Source: Escherichia coli (lineage in GTDB: Bacteria > Pseudomonadota > Gammaproteobacteria > Enterobacterales > Enterobacteriaceae). From it: 64,000 nucleotides of DNA. Position 1 is the stretch's first letter; the number at the start of each line of letters is the position of its first letter. A program made the translations under genes and the position numbers. The DNA is taken from NCBI RefSeq assembly GCF_003334335.1, contig NZ_QOWQ01000014.1; one strand, written 5' to 3'. Below are positions 1 to 40,831 of the stretch, in pieces. Under the pieces are notes generated by a model. That model was not told the DNA's origin. It ran no database searches and was given only the letters and a program-made list of their open reading frames with translations.

Positions 1-2622
1 GATCACGTACAAAAAGGCGAGATCAACGTCGGTGCGAAGCTGGTCGTTCTCGGCGGCCCGGCAATGAACATCGGTCTTGGCGGTGGTGCAGCGTCTTCTA
101 TGGCGTCTGGTCAGTCTGATGCCGACCTCGACTTTGCTTCCGTACAGCGCGACAACCCGGAGATGGAGCGTCGCTGCCAGGAAGTGATCGACCGTTGCTG
201 GCAGCTTGGTGATGCCAACCCAATCCTGTTTATCCACGACGTTGGCGCTGGCGGTCTTTCTAACGCCATGCCGGAACTGGTGAGCGACGGCGGGCGCGGC
301 GGTAAATTTGAACTGCGCGAGATTCTAAGCGACGAACCGGGCATGAGCCCGCTGGAAATCTGGTGTAACGAATCCCAGGAACGCTACGTGCTGGCGGTTG
401 CTGCCGATCAATTACCGCTGTTTGACGAACTGTGTAAGCGTGAGCGCGCACCCTACGCGGTGATTGGTGAAGCGACCGAAGAACTGCATCTTTCTCTGCA
501 CGATCGTCATTTTGATAATCAGCCGATCGATCTGCCGCTGGACGTCCTGCTTGGTAAAACGCCGAAGATGACCCGCGATGTACAAACGCTGAAAGCGAAA
601 GGCGACGCGCTGGCCCGTGAAGGGATCACCATTGCAGACGCGGTGAAACGTGTGCTGCATCTGCCGACTGTGGCGGAAAAAACCTTCCTGGTGACCATTG
701 GCGACCGCAGCGTAACCGGCATGGTAGCGCGCGATCAGATGGTGGGGCCGTGGCAGGTGCCGGTCGCTAACTGCGCGGTCACTACCGCCAGCCTCGACAG
801 CTACTACGGTGAAGCGATGGCGATTGGCGAGCGTGCGCCGGTTGCGCTGCTGGATTTCGCCGCCTCTGCCCGTCTGGCGGTCGGTGAAGCGTTAACCAAC
901 ATCGCCGCAACACAAATTGGCGATATCAAACGCATCAAACTTTCCGCCAACTGGATGGCGGCGGCAGGCCACCCTGGTGAAGATGCGGGCCTGTATGAAG
1001 CCGTTAAAGCCGTGGGCGAAGAGCTTTGTCCGGCGCTGGGCCTGACGATCCCGGTGGGTAAAGACTCCATGTCGATGAAAACCCGCTGGCAGGAAGGTAA
1101 CGAAGAGCGCGAAATGACGTCGCCGCTGTCGCTGGTGATTTCTGCATTTGCCCGCGTGGAAGATGTACGTCACACCATCACGCCGCAGCTTTCTACCGAA
1201 GATAACGCACTGCTGCTGATTGATTTGGGCAAAGGCAATAACGCGCTGGGCGCAACGGCGCTGGCGCAGGTTTATCGTCAGCTTGGCGACAAACCGGCAG
1301 ATGTACGCGATGTCGCGCAACTGAAAGGCTTCTATGACGCGATTCAGGCGCTGGTTGCACAGCGTAAGCTGCTGGCGTATCACGACCGCTCTGATGGCGG
1401 CCTGCTGGTAACGCTGGCGGAAATGGCCTTTGCTGGTCATTGTGGCATTGACGCGGATATCGCCACTCTGGGTGACGATCGCCTGGCGGCGTTGTTTAAC
1501 GAAGAACTGGGTGCGGTGATTCAGGTTCGTGCCGCTGACCGTGAAGCGGTCGAGTCCGTACTGGCACAGCATGGGCTTGCTGATTGTGTCCATTATGTAG
1601 GGCAGGCGGTTTCCGGTGACCGTTTTGTGATTACCGCCAACGGGCAGACTGTATTCAGCGAAAGCCGCACCACGTTGCGTGTCTGGTGGGCAGAAACTAC
1701 CTGGCAGATGCAGCGCCTGCGTGACAACCCGGAGTGTGCCGATCAGGAGCATCAGGCGAAATCTAACGACGCCGATCCGGGCCTGAATGTAAAACTGTCG
1801 TTCGATATCAACGAAGATGTGGCAGCACCGTATATTGCCACTGGCGCACGTCCGAAAGTTGCCGTACTGCGTGAGCAGGGCGTGAACTCGCATGTTGAAA
1901 TGGCGGCAGCTTTCCACCGTGCAGGCTTTGATGCTATCGACGTGCATATGAGTGACCTGCTGACCGGACGCACGGGCCTGGAAGATTTCCACGCCCTGGT
2001 CGCGTGCGGTGGTTTCTCCTACGGTGATGTGCTGGGTGCCGGTGAAGGTTGGGCGAAGTCAATCCTGTTCAATGACCGTGTACGCGATGAGTTTGCAACC
2101 TTCTTCCACCGTCCGCAAACGCTGGCGCTGGGGGTATGTAACGGTTGCCAGATGATGTCTAATCTGCGTGAACTGATCCCAGGTAGTGAGTTGTGGCCAC
2201 GTTTTGTGCGCAATACCTCCGATCGCTTTGAAGCGCGTTTCAGCCTGGTTGAAGTAACCCAAAGCCCGTCTCTGCTGTTGCAGGGGATGGTGGGCTCGCA
2301 AATGCCGATTGCTGTCTCTCATGGTGAAGGGCGCGTGGAAGTGCGTGATGCGGCGCATCTGGCGGCACTGGAAAGCAAAGGGCTGGTGGCACTGCGCTAT
2401 GTCGATAACTTCGGCAAAGTCACTGAAACCTACCCGGCTAACCCGAACGGTTCACCGAACGGTATTACGGCAGTCACGACTGAAAGTGGTCGAGTCACCA
2501 TTATGATGCCGCACCCGGAACGTGTTTTCCGTACTGTCAGCAACTCCTGGCATCCGGAAAACTGGGGCGAGGATGGCCCATGGATGCGCATTTTCCGCAA
2601 TGCGCGTAAGCAGTTGGGGTAA
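1..2622 (+). CDS. purL: phosphoribosylformylglycinamidine (FGAM) synthase, C-terminal ~870 codons; 5' end lies upstream of the window
   Basis: Frame 1 is open from nt 1 to TAA at 2620-2622 (ORF track 64..2622); the translation ([28 protein letters not shown]..., C-terminal amidotransferase region with GVCNGCQ) is recognisable as PurL. Confidence 0.95.
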
Positions 2623-2680
2623 GTCGTCAGCCCATTGGTTTTGCAGCCCGGATGCGGCATTAAGCACCAACCACTATCAT

Positions 2681-2706
2681 AAGCTCCCAACTCCGGGAGC
2701 TTTTTT
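2681..2706 (+). terminator. intrinsic terminator downstream of purL
   Basis: GC hairpin gctccc/gggagc (2683-2688 / 2695-2700) followed by T6 at 2701-2706, 59 nt after the purL stop. Confidence 0.65.
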
Positions 2707-2707
2707 G

Positions 2708-2725
2708 TGTCTGTAAATCACGACA
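2708..2725. promoter_or_regulatory. GlrR-type activator binding site (TGTC-N10-GACA), distal
   Basis: tgtc (2708-2711) + 10 nt + gaca (2722-2725); first of three identically spaced inverted repeats upstream of the glmY sigma54 promoter. Confidence 0.6.
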
Positions 2726-2740
2726 ATGGGTGGTTTGCCG

Positions 2741-2758
2741 TGTCGCTTTCTGGCGACA
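2741..2758. promoter_or_regulatory. GlrR-type activator binding site (TGTC-N10-GACA), middle
   Basis: tgtc (2741-2744) + 10 nt + gaca (2755-2758). Confidence 0.6.
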
Positions 2759-2803
2759 CTTAACTCATTGATTTTAATATTATCTAATAAGTTTATCTTA
2801 AGT

Positions 2804-2821
2804 TGTCTCTTTTTAGCGACA
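2804..2821. promoter_or_regulatory. GlrR-type activator binding site (TGTC-N10-GACA), proximal
   Basis: tgtc (2804-2807) + 10 nt + gaca (2818-2821); about 100 nt upstream of the sigma54 -24 element, with an AT-rich stretch between (2761-2800) that could bend DNA. Confidence 0.6.
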
Positions 2822-2910
2822 CAGTGGCTGATTTACATTCAAACAGCGGAGGAGACATAAACCCCTCAAAGCAACGTATAATCAGTACGTTACCAAACTA
2901 TTTTCTTTAT

Positions 2911-2930
2911 TGGCACAGTTACTGCATAAT
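2911..2930 (+). promoter_or_regulatory. sigma54 (-24/-12) promoter of glmY overlapping a sigma70-type -10
   Basis: TGGCAC-N5-CTGCA with GG at 2912-2913 and GC at 2924-2925 (exact GG-N10-GC spacing); tgcataat at 2923-2930 is an overlapping extended -10-like element. Confidence 0.75.
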
Positions 2931-2937
2931 AGTAACC

Positions 2938-3121
2938 AGTGGCTCATTCACCGACTTATGTCAGCCCCTTCGGGACGTGCTACATAAAATACGAATGACG
3001 CACAACAAGGTGCCTGCCGTCCAACTTCTGATATCAGCGTAGCTATATCAACCATCGGGCGAAACGTCGAGTTAGGCACCGCCTTATTCCATAACAAAGC
3101 CGGGTAATTCCCGGCTTTGTT
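2938..3121 (+). ncRNA. glmY: small RNA GlmY (regulator of the GlmZ/glmS cascade)
   Basis: Begins about 12 nt after the sigma54 -12 element (agtggctcattcacc...), ends at intrinsic terminator hairpin aaagccggg/ccggcttt (3096-3118) plus a U-rich tail; contains no plausible ORF; sits directly upstream of glrK as in E. coli. Sequence recognised from memory, not verified by alignment. Confidence 0.8.
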
Positions 3122-3179
3122 GTATCTGAACTTCCCCTCGGTTAGCATCAGGCTATTCGCGTCTGACGAGAGTAACACC

Positions 3180-4607
3180 TTGAAACGCTGGCCCGTTTTT
3201 CCCCGCTCATTACGACAACTGGTAATGCTGGCATTTTTGCTGATTCTGCTGCCCCTGTTGGTGCTGGCATGGCAAGCCTGGCAAAGCCTGAATGCGCTTA
3301 GCGATCAGGCGGCGCTGGTTAACCGCACTACGCTTATTGATGCCCGGCGCAGTGAAGCGATGACCAACGCGGCGCTGGAGATGGAGCGTAGTTACCGTCA
3401 GTATTGCGTGCTGGACGACCCAACCCTGGCGAAGGTTTATCAAAGCCAGCGCAAGCGTTACAGCGAAATGCTCGATGCCCACGCAGGCGTGCTGCCGGAC
3501 GATAAACTCTACCAGGCATTACGTCAGGATTTGCACAATCTGGCTCAACTTCAGTGTAACAACAGCGGTCCCGATGCTGCCGCCGCCGCACGTCTTGAAG
3601 CCTTTGCCAGTGCCAATACCGAAATGGTACAGGCCACGCGCACAGTGGTGTTCTCTCGTGGGCAGCAGCTTCAGCGTGAAATCGCCGAACGTGGGCAATA
3701 TTTTGGTTGGCAATCGCTGGTGCTATTTCTGGTGAGTCTGGTAATGGTACTGCTTTTCACGCGGATGATTATCGGGCCGGTGAAAAATATCGAGCGCATG
3801 ATCAACCGTCTGGGGGAAGGGCGTTCTCTGGGCAATAGCGTCTCGTTCAGTGGACCGAGCGAGTTACGCTCGGTTGGGCAACGTATTCTTTGGTTAAGTG
3901 AGCGCCTGTCATGGCTGGAATCCCAACGCCATCAATTTTTAAGACATTTATCTCATGAATTAAAAACGCCACTGGCGAGTATGCGCGAGGGCACTGAATT
4001 ACTGGCTGACCAGGTTGTCGGGCCGCTTACGCCAGAGCAAAAAGAGGTGGTGAGCATTCTTGATAGCAGCAGCCGCAATTTGCAAAAACTGATCGAACAA
4101 CTGCTTGATTACAACCGTAAACAGGCGGACAGTGCGGTGGAACTGGAGAATGTTGAGTTAGCACCGCTGGTGGAGACAGTGGTTTCTGCTCATAGCCTGC
4201 CCGCACGGGCTAAAATGATGCATACCGACGTCGATCTCAAAGCAACAGCTTGCCTGGCGGAGCCAATGCTGCTGATGAGCGTACTGGATAATCTTTACTC
4301 CAATGCGGTGCACTACGGGGCTGAATCCGGTAACATTTGCCTTCGCAGCAGTTTACATGGTGCGCGGGTTTATATTGATGTCATCAATACAGGCACGCCC
4401 ATTCCGCAAGAGGAACGCGCCATGATCTTCGAACCCTTTTTTCAGGGAAGCCACCAGCGAAAAGGGGCGGTGAAGGGCAGCGGTCTGGGATTAAGCATTG
4501 CCAGGGATTGTATTCGCCGTATGCAAGGGGAACTGTATCTGGTCGACGAGAGCGGGCAAGACGTTTGTTTCCGCATTGAATTACCGTCGTCGAAAAACAC
4601 GAAATAA
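3180..4607 (+). CDS. glrK: sensor histidine kinase of the GlrK/GlrR (QseE/QseF) two-component system
   Basis: ORF track 3117..4607; product has TM segment, HAMP, H-box (LSHELKTPL) and ATPase G-boxes (GSGLGLSIA). Start placed at TTG 3180 (475 codons, clears the glmY terminator); TTG 3117 and ATG 3225 are alternatives. Confidence 0.85.
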   Translation: MKRWPVFPRSLRQLVMLAFLLILLPLLVLAWQAWQSLNALSDQAALVNRTTLIDARRSEAMTNAALEMERSYRQYCVLDDPTLAKVYQSQRKRYSEMLDAHAGVLPDDKLYQALRQDLHNLAQLQCNNSGPDAAAAARLEAFASANTEMVQATRTVVFSRGQQLQREIAERGQYFGWQSLVLFLVSLVMVLLFTRMIIGPVKNIERMINRLGEGRSLGNSVSFSGPSELRSVGQRILWLSERLSWLESQRHQFLRHLSHELKTPLASMREGTELLADQVVGPLTPEQKEVVSILDSSSRNLQKLIEQLLDYNRKQADSAVELENVELAPLVETVVSAHSLPARAKMMHTDVDLKATACLAEPMLLMSVLDNLYSNAVHYGAESGNICLRSSLHGARVYIDVINTGTPIPQEERAMIFEPFFQGSHQRKGAVKGSGLGLSIARDCIRRMQGELYLVDESGQDVCFRIELPSSKNTK

Positions 4608-4771
4608 TGCTAACAGCCTATCCTATCAGGCTATTTTATTTGTCAGTTCGGCCCCGGGCAGTGCTCGAAATCTTCACGTACGATATGTACGCTCCGGTTT
4701 CTCCGCGCTGTCCATGTCCAGACTGTCTGCAACAATTACGCCCACTGGGATAGGCTTTAAGTCTGGTGAAT

Positions 4772-5485
4772 ATGCGACACATTTTTCAACGATTATTGCC
4801 CCGACGGCTGTGGCTGGCAGGGCTGCCATGTCTGGCATTGCTGGGTTGCGTGCAGAATCACAATAAGCCAGCCATTGATACGCCAGCAGAAGAAAAAATT
4901 CCGGTTTATCAACTGGCTGACTATCTTTCTACTGAATGTAGCGACATCTGGGCGCTGCAAGGTAAATCAACCGAAACCAATCCGCTTTACTGGCTGCGGG
5001 CGATGGATTGTGCTGATCGTTTAATGCCTGCGCAGTCGCGTCAGCAAGCTCGCCAATATGACGACGGCAGCTGGCAAAATACCTTTAAACAAGGGATTTT
5101 GCTCGCCGACGCCAAAATTACGCCGTATGAGCGCCGCCAGCTGGTCGCGCGTATTGAAGCGTTAAGTACCGAGATCCCGGCACAGGTTCGCCCACTGTAT
5201 CAACTCTGGCGCGATGGTCAGGCGCTGCAACTGCAACTGGCGGAAGAGCGCCAACGTTACAGTAAACTCCAGCAGTCCAGCGACAGCGAGCTGGATACAT
5301 TGCGCCAGCAACATCACGTTCTACAGCAGCAACTGGAACTCACCACCCGCAAGCTGGAAAACCTGACCGATATTGAACGCCAGCTCTCGACCCGCAAACC
5401 GGCTGGAAATTTCTCGCCGGATACGCCGCACGAGAGTGAAAAGCCCGCGCCATCCACCCATGAGGTCACTCCTGATGAGCCATAA
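4772..5485 (+). CDS. qseG: outer-membrane lipoprotein accessory to the GlrK/GlrR system (YfhG/QseG)
   Basis: ORF track 4766..5485; start taken at ATG 4772; signal peptide with lipobox (LLGC); C-terminal coiled-coil-like Q/L-rich region. Confidence 0.85.
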   Translation: MRHIFQRLLPRRLWLAGLPCLALLGCVQNHNKPAIDTPAEEKIPVYQLADYLSTECSDIWALQGKSTETNPLYWLRAMDCADRLMPAQSRQQARQYDDGSWQNTFKQGILLADAKITPYERRQLVARIEALSTEIPAQVRPLYQLWRDGQALQLQLAEERQRYSKLQQSSDSELDTLRQQHHVLQQQLELTTRKLENLTDIERQLSTRKPAGNFSPDTPHESEKPAPSTHEVTPDEP

Positions 5486-6809
5486 ACCTGCGCATTTATT
5501 ATTGGTCGATGACGATCCGGGATTGCTGAAACTGCTTGGCCTGCGCCTGACCAGCGAAGGCTACAGTGTGGTCACGGCGGAAAGTGGCGCTGAAGGATTA
5601 CGGGTACTGAATCGCGAAAAAGTAGATTTAGTCATCAGCGACCTGCGGATGGATGAAATGGACGGTATGCAGCTGTTTGCTGAAATCCAGAAAGTGCAGC
5701 CGGGAATGCCGGTAATTATTCTTACCGCGCATGGTTCTATTCCCGATGCCGTTGCTGCAACACAGCAGGGCGTTTTTAGTTTCCTCACCAAGCCTGTCGA
5801 CAAAGACGCGCTATATCAGGCAATTGACGATGCGCTGGAGCAATCCGCGCCAGCCACCGATGAACGCTGGCGCGAGGCAATTGTCACCCGCAGCCCGCTG
5901 ATGCTGCGTTTGCTGGAACAGGCGCGGCTGGTGGCGCAATCAGACGTCAGCGTTTTGATTAACGGTCAGAGCGGCACCGGGAAAGAGATTTTCGCCCAGG
6001 CTATCCACAACGCCAGCCCGCGCAACAGCAAACCATTTATTGCTATTAACTGTGGCGCATTGCCCGAGCAATTGCTGGAGTCGGAGCTGTTTGGTCATGC
6101 GCGTGGCGCGTTTACTGGCGCTGTCAGCAATCGCGAAGGTTTATTCCAGGCGGCGGAAGGCGGAACGCTATTTCTCGATGAAATTGGCGATATGCCTGCG
6201 CCGTTACAGGTCAAACTGCTGCGCGTGTTGCAGGAGCGTAAAGTGCGCCCGCTGGGCAGTAACCGCGATATTGATATCAATGTGCGGATTATTTCTGCCA
6301 CTCACCGTGATCTGCCAAAAGCGATGGCGCGCGGGGAATTCCGCGAAGATCTCTATTACCGCCTCAACGTTGTCAGCCTGAAAATTCCGGCACTGGCGGA
6401 GCGCACAGAAGACATTCCGCTACTGGCAAATCACCTGTTGCGCCAGGCGGCAGAGCGACATAAACCGTTTGTCCGCGCGTTCTCTACCGATGCGATGAAA
6501 CGCCTGATGACCGCGAGCTGGCCGGGTAATGTGCGCCAGTTGGTCAACGTGATTGAACAGTGCGTGGCGCTGACCTCATCTCCGGTGATTAGTGATGCGC
6601 TGGTGGAGCAGGCGCTGGAGGGTGAAAATACGGCGCTGCCAACCTTTGTTGAGGCACGTAATCAGTTTGAACTCAACTATTTGCGTAAGCTGCTGCAAAT
6701 CACCAAAGGCAACGTCACCCACGCGGCGAGAATGGCGGGGCGCAACCGGACAGAATTTTATAAACTGCTTTCCCGACACGAGCTGGATGCAAACGATTTC
6801 AAGGAATGA
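5475..6809 (+). CDS. glrR: sigma54-dependent response regulator GlrR (receiver + AAA+ + HTH)
   Basis: ORF track 5373..6809; start taken at ATG 5475 ([14 protein letters not shown]...), overlapping the qseG 3' end by 11 nt; Walker A GQSGTGKE and GAFTGA motif present. Confidence 0.9.
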
Positions 6810-6833
6810 ATTGGCGTTATGTGTTACGTTTAG

Positions 6834-7208
<375 letters not shown>

Positions 7209-7220
7209 ACCGCGTCAAGG

Positions 7221-7246
7221 GTTGCCGGATGTTTCCATCCGGCAAC
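7221..7246. terminator. perfect 11-bp hairpin between convergent glnB and hmp (probable shared terminator)
   Basis: gttgccggatg / catccggcaac with 4-nt loop; sits 12 nt after the glnB stop and 6 nt after the hmp stop; flanking U-tracts are weak. Confidence 0.45.
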
Positions 7247-7252
7247 ATCAAA

Positions 7253-8443
7253 TTACAGCACCTTATGCGGGCCAAAGCATTCGTAATGAATGTTTTCCTG
7301 CTTCACGCCCAGATCCACTAACTGTTTCGCGGTAAACTGCATGAAGCCAACCGGGCCGCAGAGATAGAACTGCATTGTCGGATCGCTGAACGCACCTTCC
7401 AGTTTGCTCAAATCCATCAGACCTTCGCTATCAAACTGACCTTTAGCGCGATCGGCTTCGCTCGGCTGACGATACCAGGTGTGCGCGGTAAAGCGCGGCA
7501 GTGACTGCCCCAGTTCCTTAACTTCATCGGCAAAGGCGTGAACATCGCCATTTTCTGCCGCATGGAACCAGTTCACTTGTGCTGTGTGGCCTGCTTTTGC
7601 CAGCGTGTCGAGCATTGCCAGCATTGGCGTTTGACCAACACCGGCAGAGATTAACGTCACTGGTGTGTCATCTGCGACAGCCATAAAGAAATCACCTGCC
7701 GGAGCGACCAGTTTCACGACATCGCCAACATTGGCGTGATTGTGCAACCAGTTGGATACCTGCCCACCCTCTTCGCGTTTCACCGCAATACGATAGCCTT
7801 TGCCATCCGGTTTGCGAGTCAAAGAGTACTGACGAATTTCCTGATGTGGGAAACCTTCCGGCTTCAGCCAGACGCCGAGATATTGCCCCGGACGGTATTC
7901 TGCCACTGCGCCACCGTCGACCGGCTCCAGTTCGAAGCTGGTGATAAGCGCGCTGCGCGGTGTTTTAGCCACAATGCGGAAATCGCGAGTACCTTCCCAA
8001 CCACCGGCTTTGCTGGCGTTTTCGTTATAGATTTCCGCCTCGCGATTGATAAATACATTAGCCAGTACACCATAGGCTTTACCCCACGCGTCCAGCACTT
8101 CCTGCCCCGGGCTGAACATTTCGTCCAGCGTTGCCAACAGGTGTTCACCGACGATGTTGTACTGTTCCGGTTTGATCTGGAAGCTGGTGTGCTTCTGCGC
8201 GATTTTTTCTACCGCTGGCAGCAGCGCAGGCAGGTTTTCAATATTACTGGCGTAGGCGGCAATAGCGTTAAACAGGGCTTCACGTTGATCGCCATTACGC
8301 TGGTTACTCATGTTAAAAATTTCTTTGAGTTCTGGGTTATGAGTAAACATACGGTCGTAGAAATGGGCGGTTAACTTTGGCCCCGTTTCCACCAGTAAAG
8401 GGATGGTGGCTTTTACTGTAGCGATGGTTTGAGCGTCAAGCAT
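7253..8443 (-). CDS. hmp: flavohemoglobin (NO dioxygenase)
   Basis: ORF track 7253..8464 (-); start taken at the internal ATG giving [17 protein letters not shown]... (396 aa); globin, FAD and NAD domains recognisable. Confidence 0.95.
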
Positions 8444-30954: not shown

Positions 30955-31695
30955 ATGCTGCAAAATATTCGAATTGTGCTGGTGGAGACGTCACACACCG
31001 GCAATATGGGTTCTGTTGCCCGTGCCATGAAAACAATGGGATTAACCAATCTGTGGCTGGTTAATCCACTGGTGAAACCCGACTCCCAGGCGATTGCCCT
31101 GGCAGCAGGGGCCAGCGATGTGATTGGTAATGCTCACATCGTCGATACGCTCGACGAAGCGTTAGCCGGTTGTAGCCTGGTGGTGGGCACCAGCGCACGT
31201 TCCCGCACGCTGCCATGGCCGATGCTCGACCCGCGCGAATGCGGCCTGAAAAGCGTCGCTGAAGCGGCAAATACCCCGGTGGCGCTGGTGTTTGGTCGCG
31301 AGCGCGTCGGCTTGACCAATGAAGAGTTGCAGAAATGCCATTATCATGTCGCGATTGCGGCTAACCCGGAATACAGCTCGCTGAACCTGGCGATGGCGGT
31401 TCAGGTTATTGCCTATGAAGTGCGCATGGCCTGGCTGGCAACTCAGGAAAACGGCGAGCAGGTCGAGCATGAAGAGACGCCGTATCCGCTGGTCGATGAT
31501 CTGGAGCGTTTTTATGGTCATCTGGAACAAACGCTGCTGGCAACCGGTTTTATCCGTGAAAACCATCCGGGGCAGGTGATGAATAAATTGCGCCGTCTGT
31601 TTACCCGTGCGCGCCCGGAAAGCCAGGAGTTGAATATCCTGCGCGGGATTCTGGCTTCTATTGAGCAGCAGAATAAAGGTAACAAGGCCGAATAA
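30955..31695 (+). CDS. trmJ: tRNA (cytidine/uridine-2'-O-)-methyltransferase (SpoU/TrmH family)
   Basis: 246-aa ORF, first gene ahead of iscR; methyltransferase motifs not individually checked. Confidence 0.9.
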
Positions 31696-31880
<185 letters not shown>

Positions 31881-32544: not shown

Positions 32545-32655
32545 TAAAAAGAATTCAGAATCAGGCCGGAGTGCTAAATACTCCGTAAACACGGTCGTAC
32601 ATCCAGCCGGTAGCCTGATTCCTTGCATTGAGTGATGTACGGAGTTTATAGAGCA

Positions 32656-39253: not shown

Positions 39254-40030
39254 ATGTCCGAAACAAAAAACGAACTTGAAGACCTGCTGGAAAAAGCAGC
39301 AACTGAACCGGCGCACCGCCCGGCCTTTTTCCGTACTCTACTGGAATCCACCGTCTGGGTGCCTGGTACGGCGGCGCAGGGCGAGGCTGTGGTTGAAGAT
39401 AGCGCGCTTGATTTACAGCACTGGGAAAAAGAAGACGGCACCAGCGTCATTCCTTTTTTCACCTCGTTAGAAGCACTTCAACAGGCGGTTGAAGACGAAC
39501 AGGCATTTGTCGTAATGCCCGTTCGCACGCTGTTTGAGATGACACTTGGCGAAACGCTCTTCCTTAATGCCAAAATGCCAACCGGTAAAGAATTTATGCC
39601 GCGTGAAATCAGTTTGTTGATTGGTGAAGAGGGAAATCCGCTGAGCAGCCAGGAAATCCTGGAAGGCGGTGAATCGCTGATATTATCGGAAGTCGCAGAG
39701 CCGCCAGCACAAATGATTGATTCACTCACCACCTTATTTAAAACCATTAAGCCGGTGAAGCGTGCTTTTATTTGTTCAATTAAAGAGAACGAAGAGGCAC
39801 AGCCTAATTTACTTATTGGCATTGAAGCCGATGGTGATATCGAAGAAATTATTCAGGCGACGGGAAGTGTAGCGACCGATACATTACCTGGCGATGAACC
39901 AATCGATATTTGTCAGGTGAAAAAAGGGGAAAAAGGAATTAGCCACTTTATTACCGAACATATTGCGCCATTCTATGAACGTCGCTGGGGTGGTTTTTTG
40001 CGTGACTTTAAACAGAATCGGATAATCTAA
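39254..40030 (+). CDS. sseB: SseB (acidic protein of unknown function, DUF-type)
   Basis: ORF track 39245..40030; start ATG 39254 (MSETKNELEDLL...). Confidence 0.85.
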   Translation: MSETKNELEDLLEKAATEPAHRPAFFRTLLESTVWVPGTAAQGEAVVEDSALDLQHWEKEDGTSVIPFFTSLEALQQAVEDEQAFVVMPVRTLFEMTLGETLFLNAKMPTGKEFMPREISLLIGEEGNPLSSQEILEGGESLILSEVAEPPAQMIDSLTTLFKTIKPVKRAFICSIKENEEAQPNLLIGIEADGDIEEIIQATGSVATDTLPGDEPIDICQVKKGEKGISHFITEHIAPFYERRWGGFLRDFKQNRII

Positions 40031-40054
40031 AATATGCCGCCCAAAGGGCGGCAT
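40027..40054 (-). terminator. intrinsic terminator oriented for a minus-strand transcript ending next to the sseB stop
   Basis: 9-bp GC hairpin atgccgccc/gggcggcat (40034-40054) followed on the minus strand by AUUUUA (plus coordinates 40028-40033); no U-tract on the plus strand. Confidence 0.55.
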
Positions 40055-40060
40055 TCGGGC

Positions 40061-40186
40061 TTACTTGCTGCTCTGAAGGTTGTTAACCACCAGTAAATTG
40101 TCGCCGGAGAGACTCCGGTTATTATTTACCTCGGTTAACAGCGCACCAGAAACAATAAGTACGATACAAAAGCACCGTATCTTCAT
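40061..40186 (-). CDS. candidate small protein (41 aa) with hydrophobic N-terminal segment
   Basis: Minus-strand ATG at 40184-40186, TAA at 40061-40063; MKIRCFCIVLIVSGALLTEVNNNRSLSGDNLLVVNNLQSSK; stop lies 6 nt before the terminator hairpin; weak SD; below the 60-aa cutoff of the ORF track. Confidence 0.35.
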   Translation of the reverse strand: MKIRCFCIVLIVSGALLTEVNNNRSLSGDNLLVVNNLQSSK

Positions 40187-40210
40187 TGTGCGGTCCATGC
40201 GAAGACCGCA

Positions 40211-40285
40211 TCACGACAGCACCACTGGCGATATTGCCGCGATAGCAAGCGCTGTGAAACACCTGCATTTACGGCCACGGAACAT
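40211..40285 (-). CDS. candidate small protein (24 aa) with basic N-terminus and hydrophobic C-terminus
   Basis: Minus-strand ATG at 40283-40285 preceded by AGGAAAGG Shine-Dalgarno, TGA at 40211-40213; MFRGRKCRCFTALAIAAISPVVLS. Confidence 0.3.
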   Translation of the reverse strand: MFRGRKCRCFTALAIAAISPVVLS

Positions 40286-40317
40286 CCTTTCCTAAAGCCA
40301 GCGCCCGTTTGCGAGAC

Positions 40318-40513
40318 GGCGGAAAGGGCCGCAGTGGATAATACACTAACAGAACAATAATAACTCTCTTTTGCTTGACAAAAAGAGAGTTACTGGCGAG
40401 TATTGTCTCCGCTGAGACGCGCTTGCATTACTACGGTAATACAACCTGCTGGAAAGGCCGCGAACCGGACCAGCAACAAAAAACCGCCTGATTTTGGCGG
40501 TTTTTTGTTTTTT
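40318..40513. repeat. tandem module copy 1 (palindrome with promoter hexamers + bidirectional terminator)
   Basis: ggcggaaagggcc...taactctcttttgcttgacaaaaagagagtta (perfect 12-bp stem 40361-40372 / 40381-40392) ...ctgctggaaaggccgcgaacc...aaaaaaccgcctgattttggcggtttttt; about 80-85 percent identical to copy 2. Confidence 0.85.
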
Positions 40514-40668
40514 AAAGGAAAGTGAATTTACATGTTTAAGTAATATCTTTTACCGGTTAGAATTTTTAATTTTGAGCAGGATTTGTTTATATTTGTCTGA
40601 ATTCGGACTAATAAGCCAGGTTATTTTATTACCGAACACGGCGGAAAGGGCCGGTGTCGATAATACGC
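40478..40668 (-). ncRNA. predicted second (sibling) minus-strand transcript driven by module copy 2
   Basis: Same TTGTCA-16-TATTGT hexamers conserved in copy 2 (plus 40698-40703 and 40676-40681); would terminate at the copy-1 terminator (40478-40506); no ORF longer than a few codons; AT-rich body. Confidence 0.3.
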
Positions 40669-40831
40669 TAAATAAACAATAATTACTCTCTTTTGCTTGA
40701 CAAAAAGAGAGTTACTGGTGAGTATTGTTTTGCTGTGAAGCACCTGCGTTGCTCATGTAACACAAGTCAACCTGCTGGAAAGGCCGCGAACCAGACTAGC
40801 AATAAAAAACCGCCAAATTCGGCGGTTTTTT
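40640..40831. repeat. tandem module copy 2; its terminator also serves sseA
   Basis: ggcggaaagggccggtgtcgataatacgctaaataaacaataattactctcttttgcttgacaaaaagagagtta...aaaaaaccgccaaattcggcggtttttt; terminator stem conserved but loop differs from copy 1; period between copies 322 bp. Confidence 0.85.

Follow-up and report, generated by a model that had tools for sequence, protein, structure and literature searches.

The locus between purL and glrK in the window (the whole 64-kb stretch of DNA that was analysed) is almost certainly that of the Escherichia coli small RNA gene glmY, together with its GlrR/IHF/sigma-54 control region, identical to that of strain K-12 MG1655 and operating by the mechanism published for it (Table 1). 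Indeed, comparison of positions 1-7778 of the window with the MG1655 sequence (NC_000913.3) yielded 0 mismatches (100% identity), and the 557-bp spacer between purL and glrK was 100% identical to its MG1655 counterpart. The K-12 glmY gene (b4441; Rfam family RF00128) maps exactly onto the segment 2938-3121; over the 7.8 kb of shared sequence, the boundaries, the motifs and the neighbouring genes are the same, without any difference at the locus. Nothing substantive speaks against this identification. A first-pass annotation of the sequence had already named the segment glmY and had proposed its boundaries and neighbours, all of which match the reference annotation of the identical sequence as well as the Rfam model; its interpretation is essentially correct, with only omissions and minor errors. 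It had further described the locus as not novel but a good positive control, which is in keeping with a locus that is base-for-base K-12 glmY. The glmY locus is textbook knowledge; its description is no discovery, and its use is that of a positive control.

Identity with K-12, coordinates, motif uniqueness, RNA family, structure, synteny and site conservation were derived from the present sequence; for the binding of proteins, the activity of the promoters, the processing of the RNA and the steps involving RapZ, GlmZ and glmS, the source is the literature on the identical sequence.

Table 1. Features of the glmY locus and its surroundings. Promoter coordinates are counted from +1 = 2938.
Feature	Position	Promoter coordinates	Strand	Remarks
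purL 3' end	to 2622			RefSeq mapping from MG1655
purL terminator-like hairpin	2681-2702		+	8-bp stem, then TTTTGTGT; upstream boundary of the unit
ABS1, TGTCTGTAAATCACGACA	2708-2725	-230 to -213		TGTC-N10-GACA; strict motif in 72/76 relatives
ABS2, TGTCGCTTTCTGGCGACA	2741-2758	-197 to -180		TGTC-N10-GACA; strict motif in 64/76 relatives
Distal IHF-like site, AATCAATGAGTTA	2761-2773	-177 to -165	-	Exact match to consensus WATCARNNNNTTR
ABS3, TGTCTCTTTTTAGCGACA	2804-2821	-134 to -117		TGTC-N10-GACA; strict motif in 12/76 relatives
Proximal IHF-like site, AATCAGTACGTTA	2880-2892	-58 to -46	+	Exact match to consensus WATCARNNNNTTR
Sigma-54 promoter	2911-2926		+	-24 TGGCAC (2911-2916), -12 CTGCA (2922-2926)
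Sigma-70 -10 hexamer CATAAT	2925-2930	-13 to -8	+	Published -10; overlaps the -12 element
glmY ncRNA (b4441), primary transcript	2938-3121		+	184 nt; exact RefSeq mapping; 2938 regarded as the +1 common to both promoters
Processed, abundant GlmY form	2938-3085		+	~148 nt; stem-loop 1 (2939-3003) and stem-loop 2 (3009-3081)
glmY intrinsic terminator	3093-3121		+	12-bp stem AACAAAGCCGGG/CCCGGCTTTGTT, loop TAATT
qseEGF sigma-70 promoter region	3117-3155		+	Published start at ~3155, 25 bp ahead of the start codon
glrK (qseE, yfhK)	3180-4607		+	Sensor histidine kinase; TTG start; identical to b2556
qseG	4772-5485		+	Outer-membrane lipoprotein; RefSeq mapping
glrR (qseF, yfhA)	5475-6809		+	Sigma-54-dependent response regulator; RefSeq mapping
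glnB	6870-7208			RefSeq mapping and NCBIfam equivalog

Genomic context of glmY

The gene glmY is located between purL and the glrK-qseG-glrR genes. The GlrR and QseG proteins were recognized by NCBIfam equivalog models (NF011695, 982 bits versus a cut-off of 763, and NF007997, 359 bits versus a cut-off of 234, respectively), and GlrK matched generic histidine-kinase models only, all below the curated equivalog cut-offs. A cognate enhancer-binding response regulator is thus present, as the gene coding for the GlrR equivalog is found 2.4 kb downstream. QseG is required for the activity of QseE/QseF (PMC6075780). The coding regions of qseG and glrR overlap by 11 nt (5475-5485), which suggests translational coupling of both genes.

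Within the species, the 557-bp purL-glrK spacer was retrieved from 5426/5426 complete E. coli genomes, in one piece each and always on the chromosome, with a second copy in 2 of these 5426 genomes. A search for disruption of the glmY locus across the same 5426 complete genomes found none, the locus being whole in all of them. At the upstream boundary, only 5 nt separate the hairpin behind purL from ABS1; between genera, this hairpin shows little conservation (0.29), unlike the adjacent ABS half-sites.

Activator-binding sites and IHF-like sites

The three inverted repeats TGTC-N10-GACA that had been read from the sequence at 2708, 2741 and 2804 were confirmed both by reading of positions 2400-3400, where every element listed in the first-pass annotation was present, and by a pattern search, the latter retrieving exactly three matches on both strands of the 64 kb, namely ABS1, ABS2 and ABS3. 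About 0.77 such matches are expected per 64-kb window, and three matches anywhere were reached in 2/100 shuffles; all three are situated within 114 bp, for which an expectation of ~0.003 per 250 bp gives a probability near 5e-9. Centre-to-centre distances amount to 33 and 63 bp, corresponding to ~3 and ~6 helical turns, and the sites, with conserved half-sites, lie more than 100 bp upstream of the promoter. According to Göpel et al. (PMC3045617), the glmY promoter is preceded, at a distance of over 100 bp, by three TGTCN10GACA sites that GlrR binds, of which ABS2 and ABS3 are essential for the sigma-54 promoter and ABS1 is dispensable. A shift of the 2700-2830 fragment by GlrR has been reported for K-12. 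The activation of glmY from these sites by the GlrR protein encoded downstream, as claimed by the first-pass annotation, has likewise been published for the identical sequence (PMC3045617).

ABS3 is flanked by two predicted IHF sites that match the IHF consensus exactly and were absent from the first-pass annotation. The distal one displays a conserved TAA...ATTGATT (mean identity 0.84) and the proximal one a conserved TCA...TTA core in the alignment of related loci. The glmY sigma-54 promoter needs IHF, and two IHF-like sites flanking ABS3 have been described, the distal one being essential (PMC3045617). The site at 2761-2773 is probably the published 'IHF site 1', and the site at 2880-2892 would correspond to the second IHF-like site of that study (PMC3045617).

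With regard to ABS3, 64/76 relatives retain the relaxed form TGT-N12-ACA, and the perfect TGTC left half found in E. coli is a minority state, TGTT occurring in 56/76 relatives. In Escherichia albertii, no exact TGTC-N10-GACA was found between -260 and -1 of glmY, with a GlmY that is 96% identical and a -24 element reading TGGCAT.

Conservation of the control region in the Enterobacteriaceae

The comparative set consisted of 80 loci from Enterobacteriaceae genomes, anchored on the GlrK protein without use of any promoter motif. A glmY homologue was present at the same upstream distance in 79/80 of these loci, the 80th being cut off at its 5' end. The alignment comprised 77 distinct sequences (the window and 76 relatives), and identity was measured to the window. 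Conservation peaked at the ABS half-sites, the IHF cores, the -24, -12 and -10 elements, and the RNA, with the spacers drifting. Mean identity amounted to 0.99 for the ABS1 half-sites, 0.96 for the -24 element, 0.90 for the -12/-10 region, 0.84 for the distal IHF site, and 0.87-0.89 for the RNA, compared with 0.35-0.49 for the spacers between the elements. A 39-genome comparison published earlier (PMC3045617) is in agreement with the present counts.

Some conserved positions fell outside the assigned sites. Just 3' of ABS3, the G at 2826, which is part of none of the assigned sites, was shared by at least 95% of the 77 sequences in the alignment. Positions 2868-2869 were conserved in at least 80% of the sequences, and the T-run at 2901-2903 was conserved too, both outside the assigned sites. 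Furthermore, two conserved blocks were found in the region of the 58-nt glmY-glrK spacer, at 3117-3129 and 3141-3149 (TTGTTGTATCTGA and GTTAGCATC), a short distance upstream of the published qseEGF start (~3155). These blocks probably belong to the qseEGF promoter, presumably as its -35 and -10 elements. That G2826, 2868-2869, 2901-2903 and both blocks reflect the input of an undescribed regulator, or that the glmY terminator is coupled to the qseEGF promoter, is improbable.

Termination of glmY and transcription of glrK-qseG-glrR

The fold of the transcript placed the terminator stem at 3093-3104/3110-3121, with its loop at 3105-3109, and 10 of the 12 terminator pairs displayed two-sided compensatory changes in at least one of 25 relatives. 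Hence, the strong intrinsic terminator that had been placed at 3096-3121 is a real hairpin ending at 3121, with a stem that starts at 3093 instead. A simple terminator scan of the region did not call the glmY terminator, because its T-run is short and interrupted. This miss was rejected as evidence against the terminator, as the fold, the covariation and the literature (PMC6075780) explain it.

The two-component genes adjoin glmY, although not 'immediately', as had been stated, since the TTG start codon of glrK is located 58 nt downstream of the RNA. The complete regulatory unit described there adjoins glrK-qseG-glrR but does not form a single transcription unit with these genes in K-12 (PMC6075780). 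Alternatively, glmY, glrK, qseG and glrR could constitute one operon, in which read-through of the glmY terminator would lead to positive autoregulation of the two-component system by GlrR. The genes are indeed adjacent and co-oriented, with a gap of only 58 nt, the interrupted T-run of the terminator went uncalled by the scan, and a glmY-qseE-qseG-qseF operon has been reported for Proteus mirabilis (PMC8745638). In K-12, however, qseEGF has its own sigma-70 promoter, with a transcription start 25 bp upstream of qseE, read-through from glmY into qseE is reported to be practically nil, and autoregulation does not occur (PMC6075780). Moreover, deletion of qseF or qseG had no effect on qseE'-lacZ fusions, irrespective of whether these contained the whole glmY locus (PMC6075780). 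A single operon is therefore very unlikely, and separate transcription of glmY and glrK-qseG-glrR is the preferred reading. Both the separate qseEGF promoter and the absence of read-through were missing from the first-pass annotation. The 3' arm of the glmY terminator would share sequence with the likely -35 element of qseEGF.

Sigma-54 promoter and overlapping sigma-70 promoter

The pattern TGGCAC-N5-YTGCW occurred once in the 64-kb window, at 2911-2926, at least one occurrence being reached in 18/100 shuffles. This sole match coincides with the sigma-54 element TGGCAC-N5-CTGCA recognized in the first-pass annotation and contains the -24 GG and -12 GC at canonical spacing. The RpoN -24/-12 spacing turned out to be invariant among related loci: in the 30-nt upstream strings, TGGCA[CT]-N5-NTGCA was found at the same offset (-27) in 79/79 loci with a glmY match, and it was kept in the same register in 76/76 aligned relatives. 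Sigma-54 ChIP-seq assigns the motif TTGGCACAGTTACTGCA to glmY (site OS24; PMC4591121), and this motif equals the window sequence 2910-2926. Both the sigma-54 occupancy (PMC4591121) and the reporter genetics demonstrating GlrR dependence (PMC3045617) concern the identical sequence.

The near-consensus -10 hexamer CATAAT was kept in 60/76 relatives. A sigma-70 consensus scan found nothing at the glmY sigma-70 promoter, which displays neither a consensus-like -35 element nor a TGn extended -10 element. The TG directly abuts CATAAT (tgcataat, 2923-2930) and is out of the TGnTATAAT register, so that from the earlier reading of an 'extended -10-like tgcataat' the overlapping -10 CATAAT, which is published, stands but the extended register does not. 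The overlapping sigma-70 promoter, with -10 CATAAT and the same start site as the sigma-54 promoter, has been described (PMC3045617) and has been called 'weak' (PMC6075780). The dual sigma-54/sigma-70 promoter that had been claimed is thereby published for the identical sequence (PMC3045617). The consensus scan missed the sigma-70 promoter because its -35 region is poor; this miss was rejected as evidence against it, the literature describing a weak promoter without a -35 element (PMC3045617, PMC6075780).

Both the lack of a recognizable -35 element, with the consensus scan finding no sigma-70 promoter, and the loss of CATAAT in 16/76 relatives, with the sigma-54 elements kept in all, would fit a purely sigma-54-dependent promoter, in which CATAAT is a by-product of sigma-54 sequence constraints. 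This is, however, extremely improbable, as residual activity of glmY'-lacZ in an rpoN mutant, abolished by mutation of the -10 hexamer, has already been reported. The K-12 literature also agrees on a start at 2938 and on a loss of promoter activity upon mutation of GG(-24)/GC(-12) or CATAAT; in K-12 carrying the -10 mutation, glmY expression is changed in rpoN, glrR or ihf mutants, according to the same literature.

GlmY RNA

The Rfam family GlmY_tke1 (RF00128) matched 2938-3085 with 146 bits versus a gathering threshold of 33 (E = 1.5e-32; model positions 1-163 of 163). The segment proposed as GlmY thus passed comparison with the covariance model. The span of the match (148 nt) equals the processed GlmY form, the 3' ends of which were located by 3'-RACE at 147-149 nt (PMC2377431). 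The first 12 nt of glmY, AGTGGCTCATTC, were unchanged in 76/76 relatives.

The 184-nt transcript was predicted to fold into two large stem-loops and a 12-bp terminator stem, with a minimum free energy of -64.2 kcal/mol (z = -4.8). This corresponds to the described structure of two imperfect stem-loops followed by a 3' terminator stem-loop (PMC2377431). The consensus fold of 25 relatives from different genera contained 53 pairs, 11 of which displayed compensatory double changes; 10 of these 11 pairs are located in the terminator stem.

The segment had been characterized as a ~184-nt stretch free of open reading frames. This is correct insofar as the K-12 annotation contains no CDS there, but mechanical open reading frames at 2803-3042 (+) and 2948-3178 (-) do overlap it. 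The chance that one of these frames, both present in the mechanical list, encodes a small protein instead of or besides the ncRNA is vanishingly small, and this reading was rejected, given the absence of an annotated K-12 CDS, their TTG or GTG start codons, their crossing of promoter or terminator elements, a conservation that tracks RNA stems with compensatory changes and not codons, and the strong GlmY_tke1 match.

Remainder of the window

Compared with MG1655, the region 14001-63909 contained 17 SNPs and one 91-bp repeat unit fewer, indicating that the strain is very closely related to K-12 without being MG1655 itself. A position-by-position comparison of 14001-64000 with MG1655 gave 24,207 mismatches; these result from the register shift due to the difference in 91-bp copies and do not represent divergence. 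At 31695-31879, a 91-bp REP-like unit is present twice in tandem (94% matches), MG1655 having one more copy, and an Rfam naRNA4 match (31757-31828) lies inside this repeat.

Rfam also retrieved ryfA at 40029-40332 (-) beside IS128 at 40464-40672 (-). A direct repeat of ~195 nt (82.7% identity) is found at 40316-40506 and 40638-40831, and the K-12 annotation of the region of 40029-40831 lists timR, ryfA and timP, a small toxic protein. In addition, the iscRS stability element and sroE were recovered (32545-32654 and 53501-53592), the latter being annotated in K-12 between hisS and ispG.

Comparison with GlmZ and other sigma-54-dependent systems

The small RNA GlmZ (Rfam GlmZ_SraJ, belonging like GlmY to clan CL00011) is homologous to GlmY in sequence and resembles it in its three-stem-loop shape (PMC2377431). 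Confusion with GlmZ was nevertheless rejected by Rfam clan competition, which assigned the present locus to GlmY, and by synteny, as glmZ is located between hemY and aslA and the present gene between purL and glrK. The glmZ genes of Yersinia and Salmonella have the same layout of three ABS, IHF sites and a sigma-54 promoter (PMC3045617). In contrast to glmY, glmZ of E. coli has a sigma-70 promoter only and is not bound by GlrR (PMC3045617). Functionally, GlmY acts as a decoy for RapZ, whereas GlmZ pairs with glmS (PMC4152352, PMC7073468).

Like other IHF-assisted sigma-54 promoters, the glmY promoter combines -24/-12 elements with activator sites located over 100 bp upstream and with bending by IHF in between. 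Transcription from glnAp2 with NtrC is an example of such an IHF-assisted promoter dependent on an enhancer-binding protein. The glmY promoter differs from the others in its activator GlrR, with the TGTC-N10-GACA motif, in its small RNA product, and in the perfect overlap with a sigma-70 promoter that has its start site in common with the sigma-54 promoter.

Published mechanism and significance

In the mechanism published for the identical sequence, GlrK/QseG drive the phosphorylation of GlrR (QseF), which in its phosphorylated form binds to ABS1, ABS2 and ABS3 (-230, -197 and -134, respectively). IHF, occupying the sites that flank ABS3, bends the intervening DNA, which allows GlrR to activate sigma-54 RNA polymerase at TGGCAC-N5-CTGCA (-27 to -12). 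The weak sigma-70 promoter, with CATAAT over the -12 element, provides basal expression from the same start nucleotide. The resulting 184-nt transcript ends at the intrinsic terminator and is subsequently trimmed to ~148 nt, a processing step known from the literature (PMC2377431). GlmY then sequesters RapZ, an RNase adaptor, as a decoy, sparing GlmZ, which base-pairs with the glmS mRNA and activates glmS. The glrK-qseG-glrR genes have a sigma-70 promoter of their own within the 58-nt spacer and are transcribed independently of glmY. The action of GlmY on glmS via GlmZ and RapZ, as invoked by the first-pass annotation, has been published (PMC4152352, PMC7073468); the genes glmS, glmZ and rapZ themselves lie beyond the window.

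The value of this locus lies in calibration, as both the boundaries and the logic of a complex small RNA control region were recovered from the letters of the DNA alone, and each claim that could be checked held. The biology concerned is already established, namely the control of glmS and of cell-envelope precursor synthesis by GlmY/GlmZ/RapZ, and QseE/QseF signalling in virulence.
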